Origin: Raillietiella orientalis
Taxonomy: Eukaryota
Reading direction: 5' to 3'
Assembly (NCBI GenBank): GCA_036172245.1
Contig: JAYWIR010000011.1
Span: forward strand, 4,588,001-4,644,913
Length of the DNA stretch: 56,913 nucleotides
Shown: piece after piece, positions 29,701-56,640 of the stretch
Numbering within the stretch: position 1 is the first letter of the stretch
How the letters are laid out: the number at the start of each line of letters is the position of its first letter
Program-made: the position numbers and the translations under genes
Notes under the pieces: model-generated
Seen by the model: only the letters and a program-made list of their open reading frames with translations
Databases searched by the model: none
What the model was told of the DNA's origin: nothing

Positions 29701-30358
29701 GACAGCTCGGATGGTACCTTTCCGGGCCTGCCCACCCGAGAGCATAGGTGCTGATCAAGGTACACGTAATCGATGCTGCTTTCCATGGCCGTGTCCCCGG
29801 CCAACAAGTTGCGCGTGTTCATTTCTGCGCACAACTCGTTGACGCGGTCGTTCAATGTATCCGGCGCACCTGAAAGCAGGCGCAGGTTGAAATCACCTGC
29901 GATCAGGAGCGCTTTGCGAACTCGTGCATCGGTCAGCCAATCGCGTCTCAGGGCAAGGTAGAATTCCCTTTTGCCTTCGCCTTCAACGCGTTATTTCCGC
30001 TAGGAGCGTATAGGTTGGTGACGACCAGGTCGATAGAGTCGGACCAGCTGAGAGTCAGCTGACTGACGCGACCTGCGTCATCGAACCGAACGTCCTTTAT
30101 TGCGGTGTCGATGGCTGGCCGAAGCAGGAAGGCGACACCGCTTGATTTCGCGTTGCCGCAACGCCACAACAGCCGCCCACCCGAGATCCGTTCGATCTCC
30201 CGGGCTTGATCTGCGGAGATCACGTGGATCTCCTGCAGCAGCACCAGGTCGAAGGATGCCAGGGTGGCGGCCACGTCACGCCTCTTGCCGTCGTCGCTTA
30301 GCCCGTTCACTTTCCAACAGGCGATCAGAAGACGACGTCGAGAGGTGATTCCCGGCAT
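26778..30358 (-). pseudogene. B2 ORF2, nearly intact
   Basis: ORFs 29948-30358, 27951-29855 (634 aa, RT core with YADD), 26778-27917. Confidence 0.9.
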
Positions 30359-32019: not shown

Positions 32020-32101
32020 TTCTGCCTAATCCTTTACCCACACCACGCACAAGCACCAACGGAAATGGAACTCAGGAGCAACGAAAAGACACGTCCGCTC
32101 G

Positions 32102-35100
32102 ACGCTCCGGAATCTCCAGGACTGGGACCTTTTTAAGGAATCTGTCCGCGAGTTCTGTGAGCAGTTCCCCCTGGATCGCCTGCCCACCGGATTCGGCGAG
32201 GGTGCTCGCAACTATCGGGCCTATTTACGGGCTCGTAGGTACGAGAGAACCCCTAATGTCCGTCGCCTGGCTGAGTACCGCGCCGGTGCCGAACGCCAAG
32301 CCTGGAAATCCGGGTCGGCCAGCTTGGTGGACGACCAGGGCCGGAAATGTTCGTCCGCGGCGTCGGTACGGCATCTCGTGCGGAGTTTTTATTCCTCCCT
32401 TTACGCCAGGGAGCCCCCTAATCGAAACGCATCTAGGCGCTTGCTTCCGGATGGCACCCGGCAATAGGGGAGGAGGAGATGGAAAGCCTTGACGAGCCTT
32501 TTACCACCGGCGAAATTCTCGCCGGTATCAAAAGGCTCAAGAGGCGTAAAGCTCCAGGGGAAGACGGCTTGCCCGCGGAGTTCCTTCAGAGCTTCCCGGA
32601 AGAGCTGGCACCCCTGCTGCTTAAGCTGATCAGGCTGATCCGAGACGAAGGCGATGTTCCCGCCTCGTTTCGGTCAGCCAGAGTGAGGCTCCTTCCGAAA
32701 GGGGGAGACCTCAGGAATTTAAAGAACTGGCGTCCGATCACGATCGTGAATACGGACGCCAAGTTGATAGCAGGGCTATGGGCTTCGCGTCTGGGGCAGG
32801 TGGCAGAATCCGTAATTAGCCCGGAGCAGACTTATGCTGTTCCCGGGCGAAGTTTGGATGCCAACCTCTTCTTCGCAAGCACATGAGTGCAGCTGCAGAG
32901 AAGAGAAAAGAAAGGGATAGGGAAAGTCGGCAACCCCACATTGGGGCCGCAAGCCGGGCTGGGAAGGGACCCCCGTGCAGGAAAGGGGGCCTTAGCGCTC
33001 GCAGTCGATCTCCACAAGGCGTTCGACTGTGTAGACCAGGAACTCATCTTGGAGCTCGTGGGTCGCATGGGCTTTCCACCCTCCCTGATTTCCTACCTGC
33101 GCTCTTGCTGGCGGAATGCGATGATTACAGTCTGTTTCAGTGGACAGAAGGTGTATGGCGTGCCGGTGCGGCGGGACATAAGGCAGGGCGATAGCCTCAG
33201 CCCCCTGCTCTTTAGCACCTACTTTGAGTTGGTGCTGAGAGCGTGCAGCGTGACCTTGGCCCCCTTGCCGAGCTCGTGCCCCGGCACGCCCGCCGTAGCA
33301 GCGTACGCCGACGATCTTCTGCTCTTGTTCCAATGTCCACCCCGGCAAAGGCGGTCGGAGACTTCTTCGATCTGCTCAGCCGCGGGACCGGACTGCAGGT
33401 TAACAGGGCGAAGTCGTCGTTTGTGCCAATAAATGCGGCGTGGGCAGGGAAGCAGGACTGGTTCCGTCTGGGGATCCCTACGGCGAGGTGCTTCAAGTAC
33501 CTTGGTGTGCCGTTCGGGGACTACTCCCCTGCTAAAGCGTGGTCCAGCTGCCTCCAAAAAGTCGAGACGGCGATCGGCCCGTTCCTGGGAGGCAAGTTTC
33601 ACTTGCCGGAACGATCCGCAGTTTGGAACGCCTTCGCGGCCCCCATCCTCCGCCCCTTGCTTTTTGTTTGCCTCCCCACCGTAGAATCCAAGAAGAGGAC
33701 GAAGGACTTCCTACGTATCGCCCTTCGGGGCAAGGGGAGGCCCCGAGTCCCACTGAAGGACTTGTGCGCTCCGCGTCGGGACGGCGGACTTGGCCTCCTG
33801 ACGCTGGAGCGCGTGGAGAAGCAGCTGCGGTGGTGAACCCTCGCCATCGCAGCGAAGATGTGATGCACCCCTTGGTGCACTGCGGCTTGCCTCCTAGCCA
33901 GCCGTGTGTCCCGGTGCGATGGACTCGCGTCTTTTCTTCTCAGCCGTGGCCGGAAGATGCGAAGATGCGGCCTACTTCTCGGGCGCATGGCCACATTGCG
34001 CAAGGAGAACAGCTGGATGGTTTGCTGACCCGCCAACTCTTCCGCCTGGCTGGAGGAGAATATTGGAACGTGGGCAGTGGCTCACCAGAGAAGCCACGAG
34101 ACGTGGAATCGTCTCCGATGCAGCCCCTACGCCCGCTGCACGCTGCGGAATCTCCTGGAGAGTCCAGCAAGATGCACGTGGGCAGGGACGACCTGCCTAG
34201 CTACGGCGCTGCCCTTCCTGAGGAGGGCACTTCACAGCAGCCGGACGCCAAGGTGGCAAGTCTCCTGCTGCATCAAGGGACGCGAGAAGTTAATCAGCGG
34301 CTGGACAACAGGAGAACTGGCCGACGCCACGATCCTGAGCGTCCAGCCGCGAGGACTAAGAAGATGGGGCGAGCTGCTGGCCATCCCTATGGATGTGCTG
34401 AAGTGAACCCCGCTTCTTCAGGAATCCAGGATCCTGCCCCTTAAGTGGAAAGAGTCGGCGTTGCTGTTGTTGCATTGGGGTTTATTCTGCAACGCACGCC
34501 GCTCTCACTGGACAAGAGGAGTTGTGGATCCTGCGTGTGTCAGGTGCGGAGAGCGGGAATCGCTCTCCCACCTTATTGTGGACTGTGCTGCCCTCCGTCC
34601 TTTTTGGGAACGGTTTGGGACGATCCTCGGTCTCCAGACGGGCAGTTGCCCTAGAGACGTTCTTCGGCCTTTCTTTGTGAAGGACGCCCTGCAGCCAGCC
34701 GCAGCCCTTGCAGCCTTGTGCTGCGTCCGAGGCATCGTGGCGGCATGGAGCGACACCAACAAGGAAGGAGTGGGTCAACACGCGAGGGATGTCATCCCAT
34801 ATGCCCAACGCTTCTTGTGGAGAGCTGCTGGATGGCCCCAACTGGGGAATCTACGGATGGACCTCGAGGGCTTCCTTCAACGGATGGGCCCTCCTCTCAG
34901 CGAACAGTGATCCCTTCCCTGCCCCCCAACCTCACTTGTTTGTTTGCCTTTTTGTTTTTATTTTTGTTTTTCTCCATCCCCTTTCGCTGCCGGGGAGTGC
35001 CACTCCGGGCTGCGTCCCGGCGTCCCGGTAGGTCCCGTGCATAAGGCCGTGAGCGGGTCCTGGTACCGCAATTGTAGAGTTTTTTATAAATAAACGCCCC

Positions 35101-37319: not shown

Positions 37320-37400
37320 ATCCACGAAGTGCAACGGGAGACCGAGGCGTTCCAGGAGCTCCAGCAAAAGATCCTGATTTACGCAGTCGAACGCCTTGCG
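37320..37400 (-). pseudogene. About 80-bp RT remnant (KAFDCVNQDLLLELLERLGLPLHF)
   Basis: Direct translation of the minus strand. Confidence 0.85.
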
Positions 37401-39172
37401 TGCTCCAGGGTGGAAGTGTTTTCTCGGTGCTCCTCGTGCCAGGAAGTCTCCCCCAGTGCAAGCGTCGTGTGGTTCGGTGGTCGATCAGGCAGCGATGCCT
37501 GACTCGACCACCAGGGATGCCAATGGGCAGCGGTAACGCCGCCCCCAGAGGCGATGCAGAGCCTGGGGGCGGCGGTAACGTCGCCCTCAGAGGCGATGGA
37601 GGTGGGGGCATCCTCCTCCACAGAATCGGTCCCCGCTGCATCGCGGGCGTGGAGCGCCGTTGTGTCGGCGCCATCGCCTGCAGCCGCGGCGGAATTGTCG
37701 GCTTATGTAGAAAAGGGGTACAACCCCTCATTGTTCTACAAGGTAGGCAATCTATATTCTTTAGAGAGCGCGCGCGCCTTATCGAAGGGCATGCGCGCTC
37801 TCGATGTGAAAGAGGAGGAGCTCAGCGCTATGACCATCCGAAGCGGGGGTCAGTACTTTGAGGTCATCTGCAAACAAGCAGAGCTGGCCCAACGACTGCT
37901 TAAAACCCCTGTGGTGATTAGGACGCGCAGGCTCCTCCCTATTACGGCGGACCGCAGCATAATGGTCCACCTGTTAGGTGTTACCGCGCGGATGCGCAAG
38001 GAACAGGTTCGGGCCGCGTTGGAGGAATACGGAACGGTCCACGCGCAGTGGACGAAAGTTAATCCTTTCGTGGATTACACGGGGCTGCAACACGGCGTCA
38101 CTGCTGCGCGCGTGACCGTTCGGGAGGGCTGCACTCTTCTCCACAAACTGGTGGTCGAAGGCGAAACCGTCGACCTCTGGTATGTGGGGAAGCCGAAATA
38201 CTGTGCATTCATCAATACGTCGGGCCACCTCAAAAAGAGGTGTCCCAATGTGCAGTGCCAAGTATGCGGAACCATGGGACACACGAGGGAGGTGTGCCCT
38301 AAAGAAGCAGTGTGGGTGGTTTCCAAGAGATTCCATAAAAAACCTGCCCGGCTTCTGCAGAAAAGGCTGGCGGAGAAAGCTGCGTAGAAAGCTGTGCCAG
38401 CCGCGCCCAAGACCGAGGCCGCACCCGAGACCTCGGCGAACAACGCCGAACAAGTCGAGGGAACTAGCCAGGAGCCTGGGTGGCAGGTGGCTACAGCCAA
38501 AAAATCAAAGAAGGAGAGAAGGATGGAGAAAAAGCTCGCGTACCGCCAGAAAAAACAGCAGGCAAGCGAGCAAATTATAGAATGCAGCGTTGTCGTCGAG
38601 CGTATTCCCGACCACTGCGAAAAAGAACTCGCCCCTACCGTCGACCACCTCTCTGTTGACTCTGTCAACAGCGAGGGGAGCGAGCCCGCGGCGGCGTCCG
38701 TCATCGACACTACCATCGATGACGTAGCCTTCGCGCAAGCCGCGGAGGAGCTGGCAGCCTCGTTGCAGCCAGAACCCTCCAAAACTGGCAAGAAGGCCGT
38801 AAGGCGTCCGGCCTCCCCTCAGGAGTCCCCCACTTCCGACCCCGAGGTGGAGGCCGGAAGAGCGGCCTCCGTTTCCACAGCACCGCGCAAGAAGGCTGGA
38901 CGTAAGTCCACAAAGCCAAGGAAGCTCGTCTCCCCCGTCGAAGGGGAAGAGATGGCTTAAGCAAGCGAGGGTGCCATGAGCGTGGGAAACTCTCGGGACC
39001 CGTCGCCCGAGAGACTCCCACGCGCGGACACGGAAAGGATCGAGGGGGTGGAGGCCGAACAGGTGCCTCAGGTGCCTGAGAAGGCCGAAACCCCCATGGA
39101 CATCCCGCCCGCCTCGCAAGAGGAGGGCTCCCCCACACCTTAATCTTCGCAGCAGTAATGCCGGGAATCCCC
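37401..39172 (+). mobile_element. Copy D0: 5'UTR, ORF1 and first codons of ORF2 (inferred family D 5' end)
   Basis: B-like ORF1 (37554-38387, 38394-38960, to TAATG 39156-39160); 5' end abuts a KAFD site in antisense. Confidence 0.8.
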
Positions 39173-39841
39173 AGCCGAAGTACGCCGCAATGTGAGACGC
39201 TACTACTTCTTGCTGTACGCGGAATCCCCGACGGAGGATATTCTCTCTGAGATACTCCTGTCTCAGGATGCTCGTGTTGTCGGCGAGGAGGAACGCGAAC
39301 GTCTCAACGAGCCCTTCACGGCGGACGAATTTTCGTCCGCCATCACTGGGCTGAAGAGACGAAGGGAGCCAGGCAAGGATGAGCTCCCTGCAGAGTTTTA
39401 TCAGTGCTTTGCAGTGGAGCTCATTCCCTTGATGCTAAGACTCGCGACGCTTATGAGTGAATCCGGGAATGTCCCGGATTCCTTCCGCTCAGCGAAGGTG
39501 CGTCTCCTGCCGAAAGGAGGAGACTTGCGCCAACTTAACAACTGACGTCCGATCACCTTGGTGAACTCGGACGTCAAGTTGTTTTCGAAGCTGTGGGTCG
39601 CGCGGTTAGGAAGTATCGCGGAATCTGTGGTGAGCCCGGAACAAACCTACGCGGTTCCGGGGCGATCCATGGAGGCGAACATCGTTTTCGCGCGTACATG
39701 GATGCAGCTGCAGGAAGTCGTTGCGCAGCAAAGCCAGGCTGCTGCGAAAGTCACAGCCGCAGGCAAGAATAACAGGCGCCGACGCAAGGAGGGAACGCCA
39801 GGTGCCTTGGCGGTCGCGGTCGATCTTCACAAGGCGTTCGA
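39169..39841 (+). pseudogene. Family C ORF2 fragment ending at KAFD
   Basis: Near-identical to about 17827-18499. Confidence 0.9.
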
Positions 39842-41331
39842 TTTTCACCCGGATTTCGCCGGAGCGTTTATTGCAACAATAAACATTTACAAAGACGTGC
39901 AGTGGCTGGACCATTGCTCAAGCCACGCACGAAGAAACACAGAGCCTGCCGGGTCACCGGTTCGCAGACCGGTACGGTCCACCACGGCAGCAGGGGGAAG
40001 GGGGAAAAACAAAAAACAAAACAAAAAAGAAAAGAAAAAACTGGGAGGGTAAGGGAAGGGATCACAGTTGCTGGTGGGGCCGTTGCATCCTTTGCAGGAT
40101 GCCGGCAAGCTCCTTCTGTATTCCTGGATCCAGGTGGAACCATCGGGACGCTCTCCTCAGGAACTGGGAGGCTGGCTGGATGGCACCCTGGTCGCGTTGT
40201 CCTCCCGTAGCCTTGCTCCAAGCGGTGACGATCCCGCGTAGGCAGCACAAAGCTGCTAACGAGGCCGCTGGCCGAAGGGCGTCGGAAACGAAGAGGGCTT
40301 TCAGTACGTCCCTCAGTTGCCTCAGGGGATTCCGATGGCCGCGGCAAAGCGGAACCAAAGGGGCCCAAGGGCAACACAATCCACTAGCAGGTGGGGGAGG
40401 GACTCCCGTTCCCCACACCTGACGCAATTGGGGTCCACCGCTCCCCAGGTCCAGTGGTGTCGGCGGGCGTTGCAGGGGAGTCCCCAGTGCTGCAACAGGA
40501 GAGCCGACTCCCGCCATTTTAAGGGGAGGGCGGAAGTGTTCATGAGCACCGAGGGTCACTTCAGATGTTCAATGGGAACATCGAGCAGCGCGCCTCAACG
40601 CAGAAGTCCATTGAGAGGCGTACTCGGGGACGCAGCGTCTGTTAACTGGCCCGTCTTCCACTCTCCTATCTTCTTCTCCTTTCCGGAGATTGTAACTGAA
40701 ACCTCCCACTTGGCCGCAACATCGCTGTCCAGATCTTCCATCAGGGAGGGCAGCGCAGCAGCGAGGGGAGTTCTTCCTGCCCATGCTCTCTTCTTTGGAT
40801 CCTCCAGGATCTCGCGGAGCGTGCAACTTCTGTAACCCCCAAACAGGAACCTTCGTTCCTGTTGAGAGCGTTGCATGCCGAACTTTCCCCACGTTCGAAC
40901 GGTTTCCTGCAACCAGGCACTACCGTTCAAAGGGCGACAGGTGACCAATCCTGGGTTTTTCCGGTACAACGCAGCCACCCTCCGTAGCTGGAGTCCGCAT
41001 CGGTTGAGGCGGCGACGGAGTGCAAGAAACGACGTCAGTCCCGTCTTGCCGGTGGCTTGCTGGAGAAGGAGACGTGCAGGGACGCACCAACACTTGCACC
41101 ACAACTCTGGAACGAGTGCCGACAATCGGAACTGGAGCTGAAGCTCCAGCCGCTCCAGCGTCAGGAGGCTCACACCACCGTCCCGACGAGGAGCGCACAA
41201 GTCCTTTAAGCGGACTCGGGCCCTCCCGTTGCCCCAAAGGGCGATACGGTGGAGGTCCTTTGTCCGCTTTTTAATTCTCTCTGTGGGGGGGCAAACAAAA
41301 AGCAGGGGCGGAGGAGAGGAGCCGCGAACGT
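39842..41331 (-). mobile_element. Copy D1 (family D), 3' 1.5 kb
   Basis: Reverse complement of about 52692-54180; terminus at 39842-39872. Confidence 0.9.
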
Positions 41332-41746
41332 TAGCAGGTTTCTGCTGCCTACGCGCGATCGTCACCGCCTGGAGCAAGGCTAACCAGGACGACGCGACCA
41401 GGGTAGCATCCAGCCAACCTCCCAGTTCCTGAGGAGAGCGTCGAGATGGCCCCACCTGGATCCAGCAATACAGAAGGAGCTTGCCGACATCCTGCAAAGG
41501 ATGCAACGGCCCCAACAGCTACAGTGATCCCTTCCCGCACCCTCCCACCTTTTCTTTTCTTTTTTTGTTTTGTTTTTTGTTTTTCTTCCTTCCCCCTGCT
41601 GCCGTGGTAGACCGTACCGGTCCGCGAACCGGTGACCCGGCAGGATCTGTGTTTCTTCGTGCGTGGCTGTAGCAATGGTCCAGCCACTGCACGTCTTTGC
41701 AAATGTTTATTGAACAATAAACGCCCCGGCGAAATCCGGGTGAAAA
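41329..41746 (+). mobile_element. Copy D2 (family D), 3' 0.4 kb, head-to-head with D1
   Basis: CCLRAIVTAW..ILQRMQRPQQL, 3'UTR, terminus at 41716-41746. Confidence 0.9.
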
Positions 41747-42385
41747 TCGAACGCCTTGTGGAGATCGACTGCGAGAGCTAGGGTCCCCTTCCCCGCCCGG
41801 GTGTCCCTTCCCTGCCCGGCTGGCGGCCCCAATGTGGGGTTGCCGATTTTCTTCCTTCCTTTCTTTTCCCATCTCTGCAGGTGCATCCATGTGCTTGCGA
41901 AGAAGAGGTTGGCATCCATACTTCGCCCGGGAACAGCATAAGTCTGCTCCGGGCTAATTACGGATTCTGCCACCTGCCCCAGACGCGAAGCCCATAGCCC
42001 TGCTAATAACTTGGCGTCCGTATTCACGATCGTGATCGGACGCCAGTTCTCTGAGGTCAGATCCCTGAGGTCTCCCCCTTTCGGAAGGAGCCTCACTCTG
42101 GCTGACCGACAAGAGGCGGGAACATCGCCTTCGTCTCGGATCAGCCTTATCAACTGGAGCAGCAGGGGTTCCAGATCTTAAGCCAAGCTCTGAAAGAACT
42201 CTGCAGGCAAGCCGTCTTCCCCTGGAGCTTTACGCCTCTTGAGCCTTTTGATACAGGCGAGAATTTCGCCGGTGGTAAAAGGCTCGTCGAGGCTTAACTT
42301 CTCCTCCTCCTTTATTGCCGAAGCACCAACCGGAAGCAAGCGCCGAGAGGCGTCTTGATGCGGGGGCGCCCTGGCGTAAAGGGAG
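41747..42385 (-). pseudogene. Copy H: family F RT fragment from SLYA to KAFD
   Basis: Highly similar to about 32395-33025. Confidence 0.9.
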
Positions 42386-42474
42386 CGTGCGGTCGTGTTT
42401 TTTCTGTGCTCCTGCCGTGAGAGTTTTCGAAGCCTTTTTTAGTGTGTTAGTGCGTGGTGCATCGCCGGTGTCCC

Positions 42475-44471
42475 ATGGCAGGAATGCCTGAGTTCACCGC
42501 GATGGAAGTTGGCGGGGGAGAGGATGGTTCCTCTCCCCAACCCACAGAGGTGGGGGCAACCGCTTCCACGGAGAAGAGGGCAACCGCCCCCTTGGAAAAG
42601 GGGGCAACCGCCCCTCCGGAAACGAGTGCTGCCGCCTCCTTGAAAAAGGGAGCAACCCCTCTCGTGCAAAAGGCCGCAACCGCCCCCTTGGAAAAGGGGG
42701 CAACCGCCCCTCCGGAAACGAGTGCTGCCGCCTCCTTGGAAAAGGGAGCAACCCCTCTCGTGCAAAAGGCCGCAACCGCCCCCTTGAAAAAGGGGGCAAC
42801 CGCGTCCTTGGATCCGTCTGCTCCATCCACGAAGACCTGGAGCTCCGTGGCTGCAGCGCCATCTCCTGCAGCCTTAGCAGAACTGCGGGCCTACCTGGAA
42901 CAAGGATACAAGCCGTCCTTGATTTACAAGGTAGGAAACCTGTTCGTTGGAAACAACGCCCGCAATTTCGAGAGGGAATTGCAGCTGTTAGAAGTAAAAG
43001 AGGAGGAACTGGAAGGCCTTTCAGTGCTCAGTGGGGGCCAGCGGGTGGAGCTTACTTTCAGAGATGCAAGCCTGGCTCAACGCCTGCTGAATACCCCTCT
43101 CATGCTGGAAGGCAGAAAGGTCTTCCCTGTAACCGAGGATCGCTCTGTGGTAGCGCATCTTACGGGAGTATTCCTCCGCATGTCAAAAGCCGGCGTGAAG
43201 AAGGAATTAAGCAAATACGGTACGGTACACGCGGTATGGACCAAGCCGAACATCTTCCAAAGTTACGGAAGACTGTTCAGTGGCATGGCCGCAGCGCGTG
43301 TGACCGTCAAGGAAAACAATGGGCTGCCCCACAAACTAGACGTCGGCAACGAGGTCGTCGACGTCTGGTACGTGGATAAGCCCAAGTACTGTGGACACTG
43401 TGATGCAACAGGGCACGTCAAAATACGATGCCCCACATCCAGTGTTTCCACTGCGGCGAAAAGGGCCACCTGCGGAAGGTGTGTCCTAAACGCGAAACCC
43501 CGGCTCCCCCTGCTTTGAAAAAAGCCAAAGGGAAACGCGCGGGGCCACCGGACAAGCCCAAGGAGGCACCCGAGAGGCGGAACCCACAGCCAGAACCCGA
43601 ACCCGTGCAGCAAGCGCCGGTCGAGGATACTCTTAACGACACTGGAGAGAGCGAGGGCTGGCATAAGGCGAAGCCTAAATGTAAAAAGAGCAAGAAGACC
43701 GAAGATCCGACAGCGGAACCCGCGACATCTCCTTTAAATAGGAGACAACGCCGCGCGTTGCTCCGCGAATGTTCGGTCGCTTTGGAGCGTGTGGAGGTCC
43801 CCGAGACCGCCACAGGGGGAGATATCCCTCGCCTCGTTGACGACGAAGTCGCGACCTCGGAAGGCGAACCCTCTGTGCAAACAGAGGGGGAGCCGAGCGA
43901 CGCACTCGCCGCAATCGACGACGACGCCTTCCAACAGGCGGCAGAAGAGCTCGCGGCCGAACTCGCGGAGCGTGAGAACGGCGCGCGAAAGGCCTTCTGA
44001 AGGCCGGCCGCAGGCAAGGCACCTCCGACAGGTGACCACGACCCGGATGACGGAAGTGCGTCCTCCTCCGCGGAGGCTCCTCCGAAGAAGACTGGACGGA
44101 AGTCCAAGAATCCCAAGAGGCGCATCCCGACAAAGAAGGAGGGGGACGCACCGGCATCCGAGGGGGAAGCCGGCAGCGTGGGAACGGAGGGAGGGATTTT
44201 CCCACCCTCCGCTACCGAGCAACCGGAGACCCCCATGGAGGAGGGGGATAAAGTGAGTGATTGCCGCCCCCTCCCAACGGTGGAACCTGTCCAAGAGATA
44301 GCCATGGAGGAGGCGGAGCAGACAGCTGACAACCGCTCCCCCCTGCCGTCCAACGCAGCCGACGAATCGGCCCCCATGGAGGAGGGAGAACCGGTGCGCG
44401 GTGATCCCGTTCCTCCATCCGTCCCGCCCGACCAGGTGGCGGGCGCCCCATTGCCACTTTCCCAGGAGTAA
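42475..44471 (+). pseudogene. ORF1 of copy G, disrupted
   Basis: CGHCDATGHVKIRC, CFHCGEKGHLRKVC; ORFs 42454-43518, 43428-44000, 44178-44471. Confidence 0.85.
42556..42811 (+). repeat. Higher-order coding repeat: 96-bp unit made of 24-bp subunits
   Basis: gcaaccgccccctt at 42580, 42676, 42772; ATAPLEKG ATAPPETS AAASLKKG ATPLVQKA. Confidence 0.9.
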
Positions 44472-45270
44472 CACCTGGGCTCGCCTGTCGCCGTCGATTA
44501 CGCGTGGCCTGCTGGAACGTGAACGGGCTGCGCGACGACAGCAACAGACGGGACACGGCCGCCACCCTGCGTGACTTCGATCTGGCACTCCTGCAGGAGA
44601 TCCACGTGATCACCGCGGAGAACGCCCAGGAGATCGAAAGGATCGCAGGGGGACGGCTGATGTGGCAATGCGGCACCCGATACACCTGCGGCGTCGCGTT
44701 TTTTATGAAGCCGGCAGTCGACGCAGCCGTGAAGGGCGTGCGCTTCGACGAAGCCGGTCGTGTCGGCCAGCTGATTCTCAGGTGGTCCGACGCTATTGAC
44801 CTCGTCGTAACCAACGTGTACGCCCCGAGCGGTCCTGCCAGGTACCAGGAACGTGCGGCGTTTCTGGAAACCCTGAAGCGCGACTGGCTGGTGGAAGCGA
44901 ACGTGCGCAGGGCTTACCTGATTGCTGGCGATTTCAACCTGAGCCTGCTCTCAGATGATGTTCACGCACAGGAGCGGACGGCCAACGAGTTGTGCGTTGC
45001 CATGCGCACGCGCAACTTGTTGGGGGATCTCCCGGGAATGGCCAAAGGCTTCGACCATTTTTTCCTGGATGCTGACCTGTGTCCACGGGTCGGCAATCGG
45101 GGGAGAGTTGCGTCGACGCTGTCGGACCATTCCCGGCTAATTATCGAGGTATGCGCGCGCGACAAGGGTCCCCTTTCCAGGGCCTGGCGGCTGCCTGGAG
45201 ACTGGACGCGACTCTCAGGTGCGAAAGAACACCGCCAATTCCTGAGAGGCGTCACCCTCCGGAATCTCGC
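44471..45270 (+). pseudogene. ORF2 AP endonuclease domain of G, truncated by B3
   Basis: CWNVNG, LQEIH, NVYAP, AGDFN, SDH in one open frame. Confidence 0.9.
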
Positions 45271-45485
45271 TTGAAACCCGGGTGCGCCGGGACGTTTATT
45301 CTCAAGAATAAACCTATACAATCTGTGACTGGACCAGTAGTCCAGCCACGCCCTGGAAAGATATAGCCTGCCGGGCTACCGGTGCGCAGACCGGCGCAGT
45401 CGACCTCGGCAGCAGAGGGGAGGGGGAACGAAACAAAAAGAAAACAAAAAAAATAAACAAAAACCGAAGAGGGAGCGGGAAGGGA

Positions 45486-48400
45486 TCACAGTTTGCTGGG
45501 AGGGTCCGTCATCCTCTGGAGGATGCCGGCAAGCTGTTGTTGCGTGTGTGGTTCCAGATGGGGCCATCGCGTCGCCATCCTTAGGAAACGGGCGGCATGC
45601 ACGTTGGCATCCCTGTCACTGGATCCTCCCGTCGCTTTGCTCCATGCCACGACGATCCCGCGTAGGCAGCACAGGGCTGCAAGCGAGGCCGCTGGAGGCA
45701 GGGCGTCACAGACGAAGAAGGGGCGCAAAGAGTCTCTAAGGTTGCCTCCGGGGATCCCCAGGGCTGCGGCAAAGCGTTCCCACAAGGGACGGGGGGCAAC
45801 ACAATCCACTAACAGGTGGGGGAGGTATTCCCTCTCCCCGCACCTGACATAATTAGGGTTGACACCACCCCGCGTCCAGTGGTGTCGGCGGGCGTTGCAA
45901 GGAAGCCCCCAATGCAACACCAGCAGTGCCGACTGTTGCCATTTCATGGGGAGGGTGCGCGAGTCCATGAGCACCGGGGGCCACTCCAGATGTTCCTCCG
46001 GAACATCCAGTAGCTCGCCCCAGCGCAAGAGTCCATTTGGGGTGGTCCTCGGGGTCGCAGCGTTGGTGAGCTGACCCGTTCTCCAATCCCCGATCTTCTT
46101 TGCCATGCTGGCGATCTTCACAGTAACCTCCCATTGTGCCGCGACGTTGCTGCCCAGATGTTCCCGTAGGGTAGGCAGTACCGCAGCAAGGGAGGTTCTT
46201 TGAGCCCACGCTCTCCTTCGGGGATCCTCGAAGATTTCTCGGAGCGTGCGGTGGGCGTGAGGCCGGAACAGAGCTATTCGCTCGTGTTACGGGCTCTGCT
46301 CCTGAATCATTGCCCACGTGCGCACGGTTTCCTGCAGCCAGGCAGGACCGTTCGCAAGGCGTACGAGGATCCGCGCCGAGTTGTTCTTCACCAGCTTGGC
46401 CGCCCTCCGAAGTTGAAGTCCGCAGTGGCAGATGGGGCTTCGGAGTGCAAAGTAGGACGAGAGTCCCGCATTGCTGGTGGCCCGCTCGACGAGGAGACGT
46501 GCAGGGAGGCACCAAGGGGTGCACCAATTTTCTGCCATAAAGGCGACAACTCGGAACTGGAGCTGTAGCTCCAGCCGCTCCAACGTCAGGAGGCCCAGAC
46601 CACCATCCCGACGAGGAGCGCACAAGTCCGAAAGACGGAGTCGGGGCCTCCCTCTGCCCCAAAGGGCGATCCTCAGGAAGTCCTTCGTCCTCTTCTTTGA
46701 CTCCGCTGAGGGGGGGCAAACAAAAAGCAAGGGGCGAAGGAGGGGGGCCGCAAACGCGTTCCACGCCGCGGCCCGTTCATGCAGGAAGAACCTGCCGTCC
46801 TGGAAATGGTCGATCGCCGCCTGAGCCTTCTGAAGGCAGCCGGACCACGCTTCCGCAGGGGAGTAATCTCCCAACGGCACTCGAAGGTACTTGAAGTACC
46901 TCACCGTGAAGATCCCCAAACGGACCCAGTCCTGCTGTCCTGCCCACGCCGCTCCGACTGGCATTACGGACGACTTCGCCCTGTTCACCGTCAGTCCTGT
47001 TCCCCGACTCAGCAGGTCGAAGAACTCCTCGAGGAGTTCTTCGATTGCCGCAGCCGGGGTGGACATAGGCAGCAGCAGCAGAAGGTCGTCCGCGTACGCC
47101 GAAACCGCAGGCGTACCGGGACAATCGCACGGCAGGTGCGCCAGAGTCTCCCTGTACGCTCTCAGCACCAATTCGAAATAGGCGCTGAAGAGCAAGGGGC
47201 TGAGGCTGTCTCCTTGCCGTATGCCGCATCGCACCGGTACGCCGTATACGGTGGATCAACTAAAAAAGACAATAATAAGCGCGTCGCGCCAGCTGGAGCG
47301 CAGGTAGGCCAGCAAAGAGGCCGAGAAGCCGAAGCGTTCCAGAAGCTCCAAAAGGAGATTCTGGTCTACGCAATCGAATGCTTTATGCAAATCGACTGCG
47401 ACCGCGAGGGCTCATCTCCCCTCCCGACCATCCCGTCCCCCACCGACGGACGCACCGGAATTCCGGTTGCTTATTATGCTCCTTCCTTGTTGGAGCTCTA
47501 ACCATGTGGAAGCGTGGAACAGGTTCTCCTCCATACTTCGCCCGGGAACAGCATATGTCTGTTCCGAGCTGATGAAGATGTTGGCGACCCGTCCCACGCT
47601 CTCTGCCCACAGCTTGGCTAAGAACTTGGCGTCCGCATTCACTATTGTGATGGGACGCCAGTTGTTCATGCTCCTAAGGTCTCCTCCCTTAGGGAGGAGC
47701 CGCACCTTTGCTGAACGAAACGAGGCGGGAACGTCACCTGTCTCGCGTATCAGCAAGGTGAGTTGCTGTACCAGGGGAGTAAGCTCTGCCGCGAAAGTTT
47801 GATAAAACTCCGCAGGCAGGCCGTCCTCCCCTGGAGCCTTTCGCCTCTTGAGCTTTCCGATGGCCGAGATGATCTCGCCCATCGTGAAAGGCTCGTCGAG
47901 GTTCCTTTTCTCCTCCTCCCCGATCGCTGGAGCACCTTCCGGAAGCAGGAGTCGTGAGACGACCTGCTCCGGAGGCGCCCTGGCGTACAGGGAGGAGAAA
48001 AATTTCCTCACTATCCCGCGTTTCTGAGCGGGAACCGAGTGCTCCCGGCCCTGGTCGTCCAGCAAGCTAGCCGACCTGGATTGCCAGGCTTGCCTCTCGG
48101 CTCCCGCTCGGTATTCCGCTAACCTGCGCATGTCGGAAGTTCTTGCGTAACGTCGGGCCTGACGATAGCATCTTTCGTTACGCGGCCACTCCCCAAATCC
48201 CGCAGGTAGGCGATGCAGAGGGAACTGGTCGCAGAACTCCTGGACCGACCGCTTGAAGCGGTCCCAGTCCTGAAGTGTCTGCATTTTGAAGCTCCGAATA
48301 AACGCGCGGAGGTGTTCCGCCGCGTCGGGAAACTTCAGCCAGTCCCCTGGCAGACGCCACGCTGACGAGGGGGGACCCTTGTCGCGCGGACGCATTTGAA

Positions 48401-49078
48401 CATGATCCGACCATGGTCCGACAGCTCGGATGGTACCTTGCCGCGCCTGCCCACCCGAAAGCATAGGTGCTGATCAAGGTACACGTGATCGATGCTGCTT
48501 TCCATGGCCGTGTCCCCGGCTAACAAGTTGCGCGTGTTCATTTCTGCGCACACCTCGTTGACGCGGTCGTTCAGTGTATCCGGCGCACCTGAAAGCAGGC
48601 GCAGATTGAAATCACCTGCGATCAGGTGCGCTTTGCGAACTCCTGGTTCGGTCAGCCAATCGCGTCTCAGGTCAAGGTAGAACTACCTTCTTGCCTTCGC
48701 CCTCAACGCGGAGTTTCCGCTAGGAGCGTATAGGTTGGTGACGACCAGGTCGATAGAGTCGGACCAGCTGAGAGTCAGCTGACCGACGCGACCTGCGTCA
48801 TCGAACCGAACGTCCTTTATTGCGGTCTCGATGGCTGGCCGAAGCAGGAAGGCGACACCGCTTAATTTCGCGGTGCCGGAACGCCACAACAGCCGCCCAC
48901 CCGAGATCCGTTCGATCTCCCGGGCTTCATCTGCGGAGATCACGTGGATCTCCTGCAGCAGCACCAGGTCGAAGGATGCCAGGGCGGCGGCCACGTCACG
49001 CCTCTTGCCGTCATCGCTTAGCCCGTTCACGTTCCAACAGGCGATCAGCAGACGACGGCGAGAGGCGATTCCCGGCAT
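45486..49078 (-). pseudogene. B3 ORF2, disrupted
   Basis: ORFs 48683-49078, 47412-48464, 46287-47234, 45486-46121. Confidence 0.9.
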
Positions 49079-50718
49079 TATGGCTGGGAAAGTGGCGTCG
49101 CGGCACCTGCCGCGGGGCAGGTGTAGGAAAGGTCCATCGGTACGAGGACCATCGGAACGAGGACGGAGGCCTCTTCAGGCACCTGGGGTACCTGTTCGGC
49201 CTCCATCCTCACCATCCCCTCCGTGTCCGAGCGTGGAATTCTCTCGGGCGACAGGTCCCGGGAGTTTCCCAAGCTCATGGCAACCTCGCTACCGGAAGCC
49301 ATCTCTTCCCCTTCGTCGTGGGAGACGATCTTCCGGGGCATTGTGAACTTTCGTCCTGCCTTTTTGCGGGATGCCGCGGAGATGGATGCTGTGTTTCCGG
49401 CCTTCACCTCGGGGTGGGAAGTGGCCGACTCCTGAGGGGAAACCGGACGCCTGACGGCCTTCTTGCCAGCCTTGGGGGCAACCGGCTGCAGCGAGGCAGC
49501 GAGCTTCTCCGCGGCGCGCTCGAAGGCGACGTCATCGAGCGTGGGCTCGATGACGGACGCCGCCGCCTCGCTCCCCTCCTTGTTGACTTTGTCAACGGAG
49601 GGTTGATCAGGGGCAGCAGCGAGTTCTTTAGCGCCGCATTCGTCGACGGCGGGAATCTGCTCTACAACGACGCAGCAGCTTTTGGTTTTTTCGCGGCGCG
49701 GAGCGGTTTCGCTCTGTTTCGCCACGTTCTTTCCCTTCCTAGGGGAGTTTTTCTTGGGGTCGACCTTCTGCCACCCTGGCTTTTGACCCTCGCCCTTGAC
49801 CTTTTCGGCGTTTTTCGCCGGGGTCTCGGGGCTGGCCTTCGCCTTGGTGGCGGACGTCACCTCCTTAGCAGCAGCACGAGCTGCCAGCTTCTTTCTTTTT
49901 TTAGCCGCGCACTTTCTCGCGTTTTTCGCGGACACGACGCGGACTGTGTTTTGGGGGCACACCAGACGGGTGTGCCCCGCTTGTTTGCATTGCTGGCACT
50001 GCACGCTCGGACACCTCATTTTAAGGTGACCAAAGCTGCTGCAGCAGCCGCAGAACTTGGGTTTCCCCACGTACCACACGTCAACGGATTCACCGTTGAC
50101 GGTGAGTTTGTGGGGAAACTCACACCCTTCGCGTACCGTCACTCGCGCTGCACCCCGGCCGCCAAACAACCCATCGTAGTCAGCGAACAGGGTTGGCTTC
50201 CCCCACAGCGCGTGGACGGTCTCAAATTTGTTTATTTCGTTCCGGACGGCCTCCTTGGTCATCCGAAACGTAATCCCGGTCAGTTGAATGATCACCGACC
50301 TGTCTTCCGTTATTGGAAGAAGCCTCCGGCTTCCCATCATTACGGGGGTTCGCAGAAGCCTCTGCGCAAGAGTTGCCTCCTTGCAGATAACTTCCACAAA
50401 TTGACCCCCGCTTCTGACGGACATAGCCAGAAGCTCCTCTTTTTGTACGCCGAGAACGCGCATCGCCTGCAAGAGGGCGCGCGCGTTCTCGGGAGAATAT
50501 AGACCGCCTACCTTATATAGAAGGGGTGGGTTTTACCCCTCCTCCAGGTAAGCGCGCATTTTCGCCATAGCCGCTGGTGTAGGTGCCGCAGCCACGGCGT
50601 TCCAAGCCCTGGGTAGGGCCGGGAGCGCATCAGTGGGGGCGGGAGCCCCCACTTCCATCTCCTCCGGGGGCAATGGGGTCATCGCCCCCGGAATCTCACC
50701 GGTAGTGGAATCAGGCAT
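49078..50718 (-). pseudogene. B3 ORF1, one disruption near 50533
   Basis: ORFs 50533-50718 and 49078-50472 (464 aa, two knuckles). Confidence 0.9.
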
Positions 50719-50800
50719 TGCTGCCTAATCCTCCACCCACACCACACAAAACACCACCGGAAATCGAAATTCAGGAGCAGCAAAAAGACACGTCCGCTCG

Positions 50801-51724
50801 ACACTCCGCAATCTCGCTGATTGGGACCTTTTTAAGGCCTCGGTCCGCGAGTTTTGCGAGGAGTTCCCCTTGCACCGCATGCCCCCCGGATTTTGGGATG
50901 GGTTCCGTAACGAACGGGCGTATTTGTATGCCCGCCGTTACGCAAGGACCCCCAACATCCGTCGCCTGGCGGAGTATCGAGCAGGGGCCGAAAGTCAAGC
51001 CTGGCAATCCGGGTCGGACAGCTTGCTGGACGACCAGGGCCGGGAGCACTCGGCTCCGGCTAGAATACGGCACCTCGTGCGGTGTTATTTTTCCTCCCTT
51101 TACGTCAGGGCGCCCCCGGGCCAAGATGACTCTCGGCGCTTGCTTCCGGAAGGTGCCCCGGCAATAGGGGAGGAGGAGAAGGAAAGCCTCGACGAGCCTT
51201 TTACCACCGGCGAAATTCTCGCCGGTATCAAAAGGCTCAAGAGGCGGAAAGCTCCAGAGGAAGACGGCTTGCCCGCGGAGTTCTATTAGAGCTTCGCGGA
51301 AGAGCTGGCACCCCTGCTGCTTCAGATGACAAGGCTCATCCGAGACGAAGGCGATGTTCCCGCCTCGTTTCGTTCAGCCAGGGTGAGGCTCCTTCCGAAA
51401 GGAGGAGACCTCAGGAAACTCAGCAACTGGCGTCCGATCACAATTGTGAATACGGAGGCCTTGCTGATCGCCGGACTGTGGGCTTCGCGTCTGGAGCAGG
51501 TGGCCAATTCCGTAATTAGCCCGGAGCAGTTTTACGCTGTTCCCGGGCGAAGTATGGAGGCCTACCTCTTCTTCGCGAGCACATGGTTTTATGTGCAGAG
51601 TAGTGAAGAAAAGGAAGAGGGAATGATTTGCAGCCCCGCTTTGGGGGCGTCAGCCGGGCAGGGACAGGATTTCCAGGTGGGAAGAAAGCCCTAGCGATCG
51701 CAGTCGATCTACAGAAACGTTCGA
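50801..51724 (+). pseudogene. Host ORF2 resumed after B3, up to the KAFD-equivalent site
   Basis: TLRNLADWD..LDEPFTTGEI..WRPITIVN..AVDLQK. Confidence 0.85.
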
Positions 51725-51965
51725 TTTTCACCCGGATTTCGCCGGGGCGTTTATTGTTGAATAAACATTTACAAAGACGTGCAGTGACTGGACCATCGCT
51801 CCAGCCAAGCAAGAAGAAACACAGAGCCTGCCGGGTCACCGGTTCGCAGACCGGTACGGTCCACCACCCCAGCAAGGGAAAGGGGGAAAAACAAAAAACA
51901 AAACAAAAAGAAAGGAAAAAACTGGGAGGGTACGGGAAGGGATCACAGTTGCTGGTGAGGCCGTT
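51725..51965 (-). mobile_element. Copy D3 (family D), 3'UTR-only fragment
   Basis: Matches about 39842-40085; terminus at 51725-51755. Confidence 0.9.
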
Positions 51966-54180
51966 TGCAGAAATGAAAGACGGAACGATTGGCAGCACCG
52001 CTTTGGGGGCGTCAGCCGGGCAGGGACAGGACTCCCAGGGGGGAAGGGAGCCCTAGCGATCGCAGTCGATCTGCATAAAGCGTTTGACTGCGTGGACCAG
52101 GATCTCCTGCTGGAGCTCCTGGGACGCATGGGCTTCCCTCCCTCCCTACCGACCTACCTGCGCTCTTGCTGGCGCAGCGCGCTGATCAATATCTCTTTCA
52201 GAGGTCAAATGGCGTACGGCGTGCCGGTACGGCGGGGCATACGGCAGGGCGACAGCCTCAGTTTCCTGCTCTTTAGCACCTACTTTGAGTTGGTGCTGAG
52301 AGCGTACAGGGGAACTCTGGCGCACCTGCCGCACGACTGTGCCGGTACGCCGGCCGTTTCAGCATACGCGGACGACCTTCTGCTGCTGCTCCCTATGTCC
52401 ACCTTGGCTGCGGCGATCGAGGAGTTCTTCGACCTGCTGCATCGGGGAACCGGACTTACGGTGAACAGGGCGAAGTCGTCCGTGATGCCAGTTGGTGCGG
52501 CGTGGGCAGGGCAGCAGGACTGGGTCCGTTTGGGGATCCCCACGGTGAGGTACTTCAAGTACCTTGGTGTGCCGTCGGGGGACTACTCCCCTGCGGAAGC
52601 ATGGTCCGGCTGCCTCCAAAAAGTAGAGACGGCGATCGGCCCGTTCCGAGGCGGCAGGTTTTTCCTGCCTGAACGGGCCGCGGTTTGGAACACGTTCGCG
52701 GCTCCTCTCCTCCGCCCCCTGCCTTTTGTTTGCCCCCCCACAGAGAGAATTAAAAAGCGGACAAGGGACCTCCTCCGTATCGCCCTTTGGGGCAACGGGA
52801 GGGCCCGAGACCGCTTAAAGGACTTGTGCGCTCCTCGTCGGGATGGTGGTCTAGGCCTCCTGACGCAGGAGCGGCTGGAGCTTCAGCTCCAGTTCCGATT
52901 GTCGGCACTCGTTCCAGAGTTGTGGTGCATGTGTTGGTGCGTCCCTGCACGTCTCCTTCTCCAGCAAGCCACCGGCAAGACGGGACTGACGTCGTTTCTT
53001 GCACTCCGTCGCCGCCTCAACCGATGCGGACTCCAGCTACGGAGGGTGGCTGCGCTGTATCGCAAAAACCCAGGATTGGTCACCTGTCGCCCTTTGAACG
53101 GTAGTGCCTGGTTGCAGGAAACCGTTCGAACGTGGGGACAGTTCGGCATGCAACGCTCCCAACAGGAACGAAGGTTCCCGTTTGGGGGTTACAGAAGTTG
53201 CACGCTCCGCGAGATCCTGGAGGATCCAAAGAACAGAGCGTGGGCAGGAAGAACCCCCCTCGCTGCTGCGCTGCCCTCCCTGATGGAAGATCTGGACAGC
53301 GATGTTGCGGCTAAGTGGGAGGTTTCAGTTACAATTTCCGGAAAGGAGAAGAAGATAGGAGAGTGGAATACGGGCCAGTTAACAGACGCTGCGTCCCCGA
53401 GTACGCCTCCCAATGGACTTCTGCGCTGAGGCGCGCTGCTCGATGTTCCCATTGAACATCTGAAGTGGCCCTCGGTGCTCATGAACACTTCCGCCCTCCC
53501 CTTAAAATGGCGGGAGTCGGCTCTCCTGTTGCAGCACTGGGGACTCCCCTGCAAAGCCCGCCGACACCACTGGACCTGGGGAGCGGTGGACCCCAATTGC
53601 GTCAGGTGTGGGGAACGGGAGTCCCTCCCCCACCTGCTAGTGGATTGTGTTGCCCTTCGGCTTTTTTGGTTTCGCTTTGCCGCGGCCATCGGAATCCCCT
53701 GAGGCAACTGAGGGACGTACTGAAAGCCCTCTTCGTTTCCGACGCCCCTCGGCCAGCGGCCTCGTTAGCAGCTTTGTGCTGCCTACGCGGGATCGTCACC
53801 GCTTGGAGCAAGGCTACGGGAGGACAACGCGACCAGGGTGCCATCCAGCCAGCCTCCCAGTTCCTGAGGAGAGCGTCCCAATGGTTCCACCTGGATCCAG
53901 GAATACAGAAGGAGCTTGCCGGCATCCTGCAAAGGATGCAACGGCCCCACCAGCAACTGTGATCCCTTCCCTTACCCTCCCAACTTTTCTCTTCTTTTTT
54001 GTTTTGTTTTTTGTTTTTCCCCCTTCCCCCTGCTGCCGTGGTGGACCGTACCGGTCTGCAAACCGGTGACCCGGCAGGCTCTGTGTTTCTTCTTGCGTGG
54101 CTGGAGCAATGGTCCAGCCACCGCACGTCTTTGTAAATGTTTATTTTACAATAAACGCCCCGGCGAAATCCGGGTGAAAA
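51966..54180 (+). mobile_element. Copy D4 (family D), 3' 2.2 kb, head-to-head with D3
   Basis: RT core ORF 52092-53429 (GIRQGD, YADD), zinc finger, stop at 53960-53962, terminus at 54150-54180. Confidence 0.9.
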
Positions 54181-55895
54181 TCGAATGCTTTGTGCAAATC
54201 TACTGCTAGTGCCAAGGCTCCCGGCGTTTCTCCCGTCCGTCCGCACTGGCGCACGCAGTCGGCAGAAGGTCTTGCCGCTGTTCGGCTATCCGCCGCAACG
54301 CGCTCTTGAAGCTGCCACCAGGTGCGCGCGAAAAGAAGGTTCGCATCCATGGATCTACCCGGTACAGCGTAAGACTGCTCCAGGCTTACCACGGACTCCG
54401 CGACTTTCCCTAAGCGCGTGACCCACAGCTTCGAAAACAACTTGACGTACGTATTCACTAATGTGATCGGACGCCAGTTGTTGAGTTGGCGCAGATCCCC
54501 TCCTTTCGGAAGGAGACGCACCCTTGCTGAGCGGAAGGAAGAAGGTACATCGCCCGTCACCCTCATCAGCGTCGAGATTCTAAGAACCAGTGGGGCGAGT
54601 TCCGCCGCGAAGCTCTGATAGAACTCCGCGGGCAGTCCGTCCTCACCTGGCGTCTTCCGTCTCTTGAGTCCTGCGATGGCGGAAGAAACTTCCTCCAACG
54701 TGAAGGGCTCGTCGAGACGATCGCGTTCCTCCTCGCCGATGCCATGTGCAGCCCGCGGCAAAAGTAGTTCGGAGAGGACTCTTTCCGTCGGGGAATTAGC
54801 GTAGAGCAAGGAGAAGTGACGCTTTAGTGCTCGCCGCACTTCGGCAGGAGCCGTGCATTCCCGGCCTTGGTCGTCGAGCAGAATAGCCGCTCCAGACTGC
54901 CAGACCTGGCGCTCGGCCCTCGCCTTGTACTCTGCGAGTTGCCGGACTTCCGCACGTCTCGAGAAGGTGCGCGCCTGCAGGAATGCTCTGCTATTGGCCA
55001 CGCCTTCCCCGAAGCCGCGTGGTAGCAGGTGCAGGGGGAACCGGTCGCAAAACTCGCGAACCGATCTTTTAAGATGGTCCCAGTCTGCGAGTTCCCGGAT
55101 GGCAAAGTTGCGAAGGAACCGGCGAAGATGCTCCGCCGCTTCCGTATGACTCAGCCAATCCGCCGGTATCCTCCAAACATTGTTTGGAGGTCCCTTGCCC
55201 GGCGGGAGTAGCTCGAACTCCAGCCTATCATGGTCCGATAACGTGGACGGCACCCTGCCTCTCCTTCCCACTCGCGAGAGTAGGTGCTCATCGAGGTAGA
55301 GGTGATCCACGCACCTTTCCAGTCCAGGCTCGCCGGCTTCCAAGTTACGCGCGTGCACCGACGCGCATGCCTCTTCCACCCGCGACCGTTCCGCCAGGGA
55401 CCGCGTCTCGTTGGAAAGAAGGTGGACGTTGAAGTCCCCTGCGACGAGATGCGCCACTCTGGCTCCGGAGTTTCTGAGCCATTGGCTCTCCAGCACGTCG
55501 AAGAACTCGATTCTTTCGACACGCCGATGAAAGCCGCTCGGCGCGTAGACGTTGGTTACGACGAGGTCGATTGAATCTGACCACTTGAGTGCAAGTTGGC
55601 CCATTCGCCCTTCCTGGTCGAATCGAACGCTGCACACCGCTCCCGCCATCCTACTATTGACGAGAAAACCGACTTCGCACGATTGTGCAGAACCTTTTCG
55701 CCAGTACAGGGTGCCACCCGCGCGCTGTTCGATTTCCGCAACCTCCGCATCGGAGATGTAATGCATCTCCTGAAGGATCGCCAAATCGAAATGTCGCAGG
55801 GTGTCTGACACGTCGCGCCTCTTTCCGTCCCTGCGCAGCCCATTGACGTTCCAACAGGATACACTGGATTGACGAAAAGAGGCGACTTCCTGCAT
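54181..55895 (-). pseudogene. ORF2 of J (APE + RT N-terminal half), open but cut by D4
   Basis: ORF 54141-55916: CWNVNG..WRPITLVN..DLHKAFD. Confidence 0.9.
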
Positions 55896-56640
55896 TAAGG
55901 CTGGGAAGGTGAGCACAGATTTCTCGCCTTGTCCGGCGAGTGGTCACGAGACAGAGCGGTCGATCTCGGAGACTGGACATCTCCATTCGAAGCCGCACTG
56001 CTTGTTGCCGGTAGTTCAGAGGTGAGGTCCTTTTCCTCCTCTTTGCTCCCCAGCAACAGTTCCTCCTCGGCAACCACGCGCTTGCGGGTCTTCGGGAGGC
56101 GATTGCGCGGTTTCGGGCGGTTGTCGCGCTGTGTGCTCTTTCTGTCGGACTCTGGATCAGAATCCGACAGTCCAGGGCTTGCCAGGCGCTGCTGCTGTTT
56201 CCCGGAATTAGGGAAATCGTTCGCTGCCTGTTTCCTAGCAATTTCTGCAACTGCGGCTGGGACTTTCGTCCTTTTAGCCGCAGCAGCAGCTTCCCGCTCC
56301 ATCCGCGAGAGAACGAATGCGCAGGAGGAAAGAATCGCAATCTTTTTCTGCGAAGGTTTCGCGGGTTTCTTTCGCCCACTCACCTTCACACAGAGCTGCG
56401 AAGACCTTGATGGTTTCTTTCTAATGATCTTTCTCACCTGCATCCAGCCGTCTTCCTTCGCGTCGCAGTTATCTTTGCCATCCTGAGATGGCGCTGCTTA
56501 CACGGATGTAAGAGGCGTTGCCTTGGCTGCCTCTTGGAGTGCTGCCTCCACGCAGGCGTAAGCAACTCCTTTAGCGATCGCGAGAGCCTTGCGCACGGGC
56601 GGTATCGCCGCCGCTGAACGAAAGGGAGGCGTGATTATTG
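54181..56640 (-). mobile_element. Copy J (family C-related): ORF1 tail and ORF2 up to KAFD
   Basis: TAATG at 55893-55897; open APE-RT frame; ORF1 tail at 55895-56443. Confidence 0.88.

Follow-up and report, generated by a model that had tools for sequence, protein, structure and literature searches.

A stretch of 56,913 nt from the genome of Raillietiella orientalis (contig JAYWIR010000011.1 of assembly GCA_036172245.1, positions 4,588,001 to 4,644,913 of the forward strand; hereafter the window) raises the question of how four copies of one family of long interspersed nuclear elements (LINEs), family D, came to end at the same codons of different host elements, namely those for the K-A-F-D residues of reverse transcriptase (RT) motif A. 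Nearly the whole window consists of LINE copies nested in LINEs, with open reading frames ORF1 and ORF2 (translated searches). ORF2 of the host elements and of the copies of a second family, E, specifies an apurinic/apyrimidinic endonuclease (APE) and an RT (Pfam Exo_endo_phos, 4.8e-13; RVT_1, 4.3e-15). Among proteins of solved structure the best match is human LINE-1 ORF2p (1.5e-27), and the R1Bm and TRAS1 endonucleases were absent from these matches at E ≤ 1. The nearest database proteins are about 25% identical (protein search). The answer favoured here, which we consider likely, is that D belongs to the L1 group as a LINE with endonuclease-dependent, target-specific insertion (or as a non-autonomous subfamily of such a LINE) and nicks ...TTCGA^C within motif A.

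The four D copies and the host fragments that they adjoin are as follows (C and G are further LINE families, described below):
nt 39842–41331, minus strand: D_a, a 5′-truncated copy with the end of ORF2 and a 753-nt tail; its 3′ end adjoins host1 at junction J1.
nt 41329–41746, plus strand: D_b, a 418-nt 5′-truncated tail; its 3′ end adjoins host2 at J2.
nt 51725–51965, minus strand: D_c, a 241-nt 5′-truncated tail; its 3′ end adjoins host3 at J3.
nt 51966–54180, plus strand: D_ref, the longest D copy, which begins 111 nt before its own KAFD codons; its 3′ end adjoins host4 at J4.
nt 39169–39841, plus strand: host1, a C-family RT fragment from about ORF2 residue 365 to K-A-F-D, cut at J1.
nt 41747–42384, minus strand: host2, a fragment of a G-family RT that runs to K-A-F-D, where J2 cuts it.
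nt 50817–51724, plus strand: downstream piece of host3, from DWD to K-A-F-D, cut at J3.
nt 54181–55943, minus strand: host4, a 600-aa open APE and RT frame ending at K-A-F-D, cut at J4 (Pfam Exo_endo_phos, 4.8e-13).

The 16-mer TTCGA|TTTTCACCCGG (that is, TTCGATTTTCACCCGG), which spans the joint between host and element, has four exact matches in the window (nt 39837–39852, plus; 41736–41751, minus; 51720–51735, plus; 54170–54185, minus), where 0.03 are expected and none of 100 shuffles reached four; with up to two mismatches allowed, no further copies were found in the window. The resulting junctions (J1, 39841/2; J2, 41746/7; J3, 51724/5; J4, 54180/1) are those placed by the initial annotation, and the four host flank strings that it quoted are correct. 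A flank-free 27-mer from within D matched at the same four places and nowhere else in the window, so all four D 3′ ends present there occupy the KAFD junction. Alignments of 500 nt around each junction show an abrupt change at TTCGA|T, from a diverged host side to a near-identical D side. At all four, the host frame stops at ...A-V-D-L-H-K-A-F-D and D lies antisense to the host. The same base and the same orientation are thus found in 4/4 D 3′ ends, and by our arithmetic the chance of this through independent landing in a LINE of about 5.5 kb, on either strand, is about (1/11000)^3. The host side is invariant only over TCGAA, which leaves the exact cut uncertain within about 5 nt. The spacing between a terminal hairpin and the 3′ end, described below, places the end of D at ...GGGTGAAAA, and with D ending at ...GAAAA, TCGAA belongs, to within a few bases, to the host. 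From the sixth base on, the D 3′ flanks diverge and track the lineage of each host.

Could a less specific process have produced the common junction? Everything in the window is LINE-in-LINE, so a regional bias is certain, and the nested clusters of Zepp/ZeppL, L1-type LINEs of green algae, are described as targeting existing copies (PMC8226300). Under an explanation of this kind, D would prefer the region or be better tolerated in dead LINEs, and the shared junction would reflect chance, microhomology or faulty assembly. Regional preference cannot, however, yield the same base and strand in 4/4 D ends, nor in the 3/3 ends of family E. Against an assembly artefact, the flanks at whose edge the junctions occur are diverged and non-repeated, and a contig from an independent public run spans one of them (nt 54140–54334, with 18 differences and two gaps). 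This contig is weak evidence that the D|KAFD junctions are real features of the genome; the run contained 0.15 of the sampled words, in short contigs, and those placed on nt 53000–54500 showed no joints. We find the explanation as a whole hardly credible. A metagenome scan with the last 20 nt of D returned seven loci, both flanks of which were unlike D, and these were taken as chance matches.

The preferred site appears to tolerate variation in part of its sequence. Landings occurred in the AAGGCG, AAAGCA and AAACG variants of the K and A codons, so changes in these codons give no protection. The KAFD codons of D_ref itself (nt 52077–52088) read AAAGCGTTTGAC, with TTTGAC in place of TTCGAC, and the TCGA at the cut is lost; among the 11 KAFD-coding sites of the window this is the only one with TTT. 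The substitution could be a form of self-immunity or merely a CpG transition (n = 1). The initial annotation had proposed that hosts could escape mainly by synonymous change, a view that is at most hinted at by the TTTGAC of D_ref and that does not hold for the K and A codons. KAFD sites free of D are found at nt 18489–18500 (plus), 11503 (minus), 28653 (minus), 33016 (plus), 47373 (minus) and 52077 (plus). Nicking of the palindromic TCGA on both strands was considered and rejected, as a sense-oriented flank TCGACTGC is present at 0/4 junctions.

All 12 LINE 3′ ends in the window carry a CCCGG-loop-CCGGG hairpin followed by 6–10 nt, and none has a poly(A) tail. Single-sequence folds (nt 54091–54180, 45270–45359, 20599–20688 and nine others) added two hairpins farther upstream in D, E and C, with up to three in succession; AATAAA forms one arm of the middle (second) hairpin and is no obvious poly(A) signal. 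No covariation was found in the terminal hairpin, the stem being invariant in the 12 ends. A terminal hairpin without poly(A) agrees with precise recognition of the 3′ end. Each of the four D copies is truncated at a different point on the 5′ side, and all have the exact 3′ end ...CCGGGTGAAAA in common. Hallmarks of target-primed reverse transcription are therefore seen in D (intact 3′ end with variable 5′ truncation), and in G, C and the E copy E8 in the form of target duplications. Elsewhere in the window, at nt 1619/1620, a member of another family, its tail resembling that of D (...GGGTGAAAA, about 66% identical), ends antisense in the zinc-finger region of a minus-strand LINE, and a further 5′-truncated copy follows (about nt 2116–2684). 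As this D-like tail lies at a non-KAFD site, the tail sequence alone does not fix the choice of KAFD.

Whether the four junctions stem from separate events was assessed by comparing their two sides. Over 241 nt the D sides are 88.8–96.2% identical, against 57.7–77.8% for the host sides, which reach 58.6–83.3% over 630 nt. Host1 is 94% identical to element C (nt 17827–18499). Host2 shows 89.7% identity to G and 83.4% to host3, a G-family element that begins at nt 42385, is split also by E8 and shows 82% identity to G. Host4, with 74% identity to C, represents another lineage. Both D (89–96% within the element versus 58–83% between hosts) and family E show the pattern expected of insertion into independent target copies rather than of co-amplification. 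The contrast is smallest for J2 and J3 (D_b/D_c, 88.8%; host2/host3, 83.3%), and for this reason three insertions are counted as safe on the alignments, the fourth being probable. The initial annotation had treated all four events as independent; at least three of them stand, D being far more alike than its hosts, while J2 and J3 are less clearly separate. Its central claim, that D enters hosts of different lineages at a single KAFD position and always in the same orientation, is supported within the window.

The smallness of the J2/J3 contrast and the heavy rearrangement of the cluster would also suit a history in which copies of one or two ancient D-in-LINE composites arose, by segmental duplication or as composite RNA, and the D parts were then homogenised by gene conversion as the host parts drifted apart. 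The hosts at J1, J4 and J2/J3, however, come from different families and show only 58–74% identity, against 91–96% for the D parts that adjoin them. The D copies also have four distinct 5′ truncation points, and conversion tracts would need to have ended at the same base four times. Copying of composites is accordingly a very improbable source of these junctions.

A single 5′ junction provides information on the other end of the element:
nt 37330–37398, minus strand: host0, a 68-nt RT fragment (K-A-F-D-C-V-N-Q...) that adjoins the 5′ end of X.
nt 37399–39167, plus strand: X, the 5′ part of the element named D0 by the initial annotation, with a LINE 5′ untranslated region, ORF1 and the first seven ORF2 codons, beginning CGTGCTCC...

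The initial annotation had D0 abutting the complementary KAFD half-site, and such a junction does exist between host0 and X (37398/9). Beside it, TCGAACGCCTTG (nt 37387–37398) is identical over 12 nt to the 3′ flanks at J1 and J2, which implies a target duplication of 11–12 bp, instead of the 12–14 bp first proposed. This is the only 5′ junction for D, and none of the four D 3′ ends can be named as its partner. Host0 matches C at 54 of 69 positions and is by this comparison a fifth host lineage. The nearest relatives of X are the E copies E6, E7 and E8 (69–70% over about 1450–1520 nt), and the start of X is similar to the 5′ ends of other LINEs. Since E is the nearest relative of both X and the 3′ half of D, X is a plausible candidate for the 5′ half of family D. 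D0 as a whole, by contrast, is chimeric and not one D element as had been supposed: X runs directly into the C-family RT piece (host1) from about ORF2 residue 365, without an endonuclease, so only the 5′ part can belong to D. At the fusion point (nt 39159–39200) the ORF2 start M-P-G-I-P-S-R is joined to P-A-E-V-R-R... (about residue 365, C family), and the whole endonuclease is skipped. Two ways of pairing these pieces were rejected. D0 and D_b do not form a full-length D with both duplications, as the ORF2 part of D0 matches family C at 94% and the tail of C differs; nor is host0 the missing downstream half of host1, the two being 78% and 94% identical to C, respectively.

Alignment of the D copies identifies the family as the ordinary 3′ part of an APE and RT LINE family, consisting of the ORF2 C-terminus with its zinc-finger region and a structured tail. 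D is no distinct type of element but belongs to the same guild of LINEs as its hosts. Translated searches found only the C-terminal part of the RT, with the tail, for D itself. Its 3′ half is closest to family E (70–77%, rising to 93% at most within the RT core). D_a and D_ref are 97% identical over 753 nt, with the D_a boundary mapping to position 727 of D_ref. Both have a TGA stop (nt 53427–53429 in D_ref) where family E has TGG, and both have a 1-nt deletion giving a −1 frameshift near nt 53705; the D_a equivalents are near nt 40595 and 40310. Together, the stop and the frameshift separate the C-terminal zinc-finger region (C..C..CX7HX4C) from the rest of the frame; apart from this, the region can still be read. 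D_ref was also considered as the downstream half of host3 carrying a 110-nt duplication. This is unlikely: the two copies are 87% identical over 122 nt, and in its RT core D_ref reaches 93% identity with E, against 81% with G.

Other families in the window behave in a comparable manner, each at a site of its own:
nt 45270–50800, minus strand: E8, a full-length family E copy, antisense in host3 at ...LRNLA|DWD and flanked by 16-nt target copies with two mismatches.
nt 21030–26547, minus strand: E6, in tandem with E7, antisense in host G at ...LRNLA|DWD.
nt 26564–32101, minus strand: E7, in tandem with E6, antisense in host G, with target copies at nt 26548–26563 and 32102–32117.
nt 12339–35120, plus strand: G, a host LINE carrying C, E6 and E7, itself antisense in a LINE of family F at ...PPGFG, with duplication GCCGAA(A/T)CC.
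nt 14782–20688, plus strand: C, a LINE lying in the sense direction within G, inserted at the endonuclease motif GDFN; target duplication (A)TTTCAAT.

For G in F, C in G and E8 in host3, both host halves and the duplications are present, which confirms the nested-insertion model. With respect to their hosts, D, E, G and F are antisense and C is sense. All three family E ends in the window are at the same site and antisense, and the E copies are 93–94% identical to one another, against 74–81% for their hosts, G and host3. The E site is occupied in 2/2 G-family copies and in none of the seven other copies that span it, the sequence there being different. E6 and E7 have a 16-nt target copy in common, like a double insertion at one site, and both begin with an identical 16-nt target-like leader, GGAGATTCCGGAGCGT, which differs at 3/16 positions from the G sequence at the E6 3′ junction. 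From these comparisons, each family is seen to have its own landing site inside the ORF2 of another LINE. E6, E7 and E8 are three near full-length, decayed copies (regions with target copies, nt 21030–32117 and 45270–50816). The 5′ end of F, near nt 37330 (minus strand), adjoins the 68-nt host0 in sense orientation, and its 3′ end (about nt 9350) lies antisense in another host, H (nt 8250–9349), at ...APAN|VR, so that the F flanks come from different hosts. The F site in H (about residue 370) is near the D0 fusion point (about residue 365). H and the D0 ORF2 piece were rejected as host halves split by F, being 71% and 94% identical to C, respectively.

In the mechanism that we favour, the D machinery would recognise DNA coding for RT motif A (...K-A-F-D...) in other LINE copies and nick the sense strand of the host after TTCGA (TTCGA^CTGC, in the context AAGGCGTTCGA^CTGC), with the specificity presumably residing in the D endonuclease. 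The freed 3′-OH would prime reverse transcription on the structured, non-polyadenylated 3′ end of the D RNA, with its hairpins and tail ...GGGTGAAAA, and priming on a sense-strand nick would place D always antisense to its host. A second nick, 11–12 nt away on the opposite strand (CCTTG^TG), would give rise to the duplication TCGAACGCCTTG. D would be one of several related families, each with a fixed landing site in ORF2, and their repeated insertion would build up a cluster nested in the manner of Russian dolls.

Several observations weigh against this mechanism or limit its basis, which consists of four D 3′ ends and one 5′ end in one 57-kb window. J2 and J3 may represent a single event. Two perfect targets (AAGGCGTTCGAC, at nt 18489 and 33016) are empty, and the window contains neither a complete D or D endonuclease nor a host with both halves around D. 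The copies D_a and D_b meet head-to-head at nt 41329–41331, with an overlap of about 3 nt, and D_c and D_ref do so at 51965/51966 with 0 nt overlap; both pairs bridge two inverted hosts that end at KAFD and lack their downstream halves. Twin priming is ruled out as the origin of these inverted pairs, as each arm ends in a true D 3′ end at KAFD. Two priming events at inverted KAFD sites, with joining of the complementary DNAs (cDNAs) and deletion of the intervening DNA, would produce such a structure. The stop and frameshift common to D_ref and D_a indicate that the source of both was already defective and so moved in trans, and at least this subfamily must have been mobilised by the proteins of another element. 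Lastly, related families with similar proteins use different sites, as do the close families D and E (70–93% identical in places), and this could equally point to guidance by RNA.

Such guidance would mean that D is site-specific through nucleic acid, the flanks of its transcript annealing to nicked LINE DNA. If transcripts ran on at the 3′ end into TCGAACGCC... and carried in a 5′ leader the target copy from upstream, a family would return to the site of its master copy. R1 and R2 elements reportedly use co-transcribed target sequence. The E6/E7 leader GGAGATTCCGGAGCGT, at 3/16 positions off G's own sequence, looks as if imported with the RNA, and D copies with a broken ORF2 still reached the KAFD site. 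The mismatches of the E target copies could, however, be later mutations in old, decaying copies. The D flanks track the host lineage from the sixth base, which argues that no long flank was copied in, and, read directly, the D tail (...GUGAAAA) has no evident complementarity to the ...GTTCGA end of the primer. On balance we think nucleic-acid guidance unlikely, and favour recognition of the motif A codons by an endonuclease.

Known target-specific LINEs include Tx1L in the Tx1D DNA transposon, R1 in 28S ribosomal DNA (rDNA) and TRAS/SART in telomeric repeats. The target classes of such LINEs already include transposons, and APE-type examples occur in the Tx1 and R1 clades (PMC4640811). The LINEs of the window share with the Tx1- and R1-clade elements the APE and RT combination, a short fixed target duplication and the absence of long poly(A) dependence, and the D ends of the window lie, as in those elements, at one nucleotide position and in one orientation of a multicopy sequence. 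Unlike in those clades, the target of D is the coding sequence of the RT active-site region in LINEs of its own guild, entered antisense, and several sister families each use a different site in the same ORF2. The tandem pair E6/E7 recalls R2 and R1 in rDNA, in having two elements at one target with a common target copy, and in the target-like sequence at the element 5′ end. R2 uses a restriction-like endonuclease, and R1 and R2 target rRNA genes in sense orientation. In the available portions of their descriptions, Zepp and ZeppL resemble the elements of the window as GC-rich LINEs in clusters of nested copies, and those portions give no nucleotide-level landing site, orientation rule or multi-family guild of the kind seen here (PMC3446292, PMC8226300, PMC9940879). 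Zepp/ZeppL form one cluster per chromosome, at the putative centromere; the present data concern one 57-kb window. Zepp has a poly(A) tail, unlike the LINEs of the window, Zepp being compared here by its description only. Full-text searches, whose scope left out supplements and the original Zepp papers (where a site rule might be given), returned no report of a LINE targeting the RT motif of other LINEs.

Taken more widely, the genome may hold a guild of mutually parasitic, site-specific LINEs that build a LINE-only domain, possibly a centromere, with the TTT of D as self-immunity; this is a tentative proposal in which we place less than even confidence. In such a guild, D would exploit RT motif-A codons, which are common to all families and hardly changeable, E a variable stretch found only in G-family hosts, and G and C the PPGFG and GDFN codons. 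Each insertion would disable a competitor and give the invader a harmless landing pad, and double hits at inverted targets would fuse cDNAs head-to-head and delete or rearrange the DNA between them. If the favoured mechanism is correct, D would clearly exemplify one transposon family interfering directly with others, at a target with little scope for mutations that leave the victim's enzyme working. Such an element would also give a nucleotide-level origin for LINE-only nested clusters, which are proposed centromeres in some algae, and the close families with different sites would form a natural series for mapping specificity to protein loops or RNA ends. Site-specific LINEs are of interest as models of safe-target choice and as starting points for programmable gene insertion.

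Two minor features of the window complete the description. A far more distant LINE (nt 5515–7860, minus strand; 23–31% protein identity to the others) has the motif E-K-A-F-D-S (AAGGCTTTCGAC) uninterrupted. The N-terminal part of host3 ORF1 (nt 42530–42800, plus strand) contains a tandem repeated peptide block (KGATAPPETSAAASL.KGATPLVQKAATAPL, present twice).

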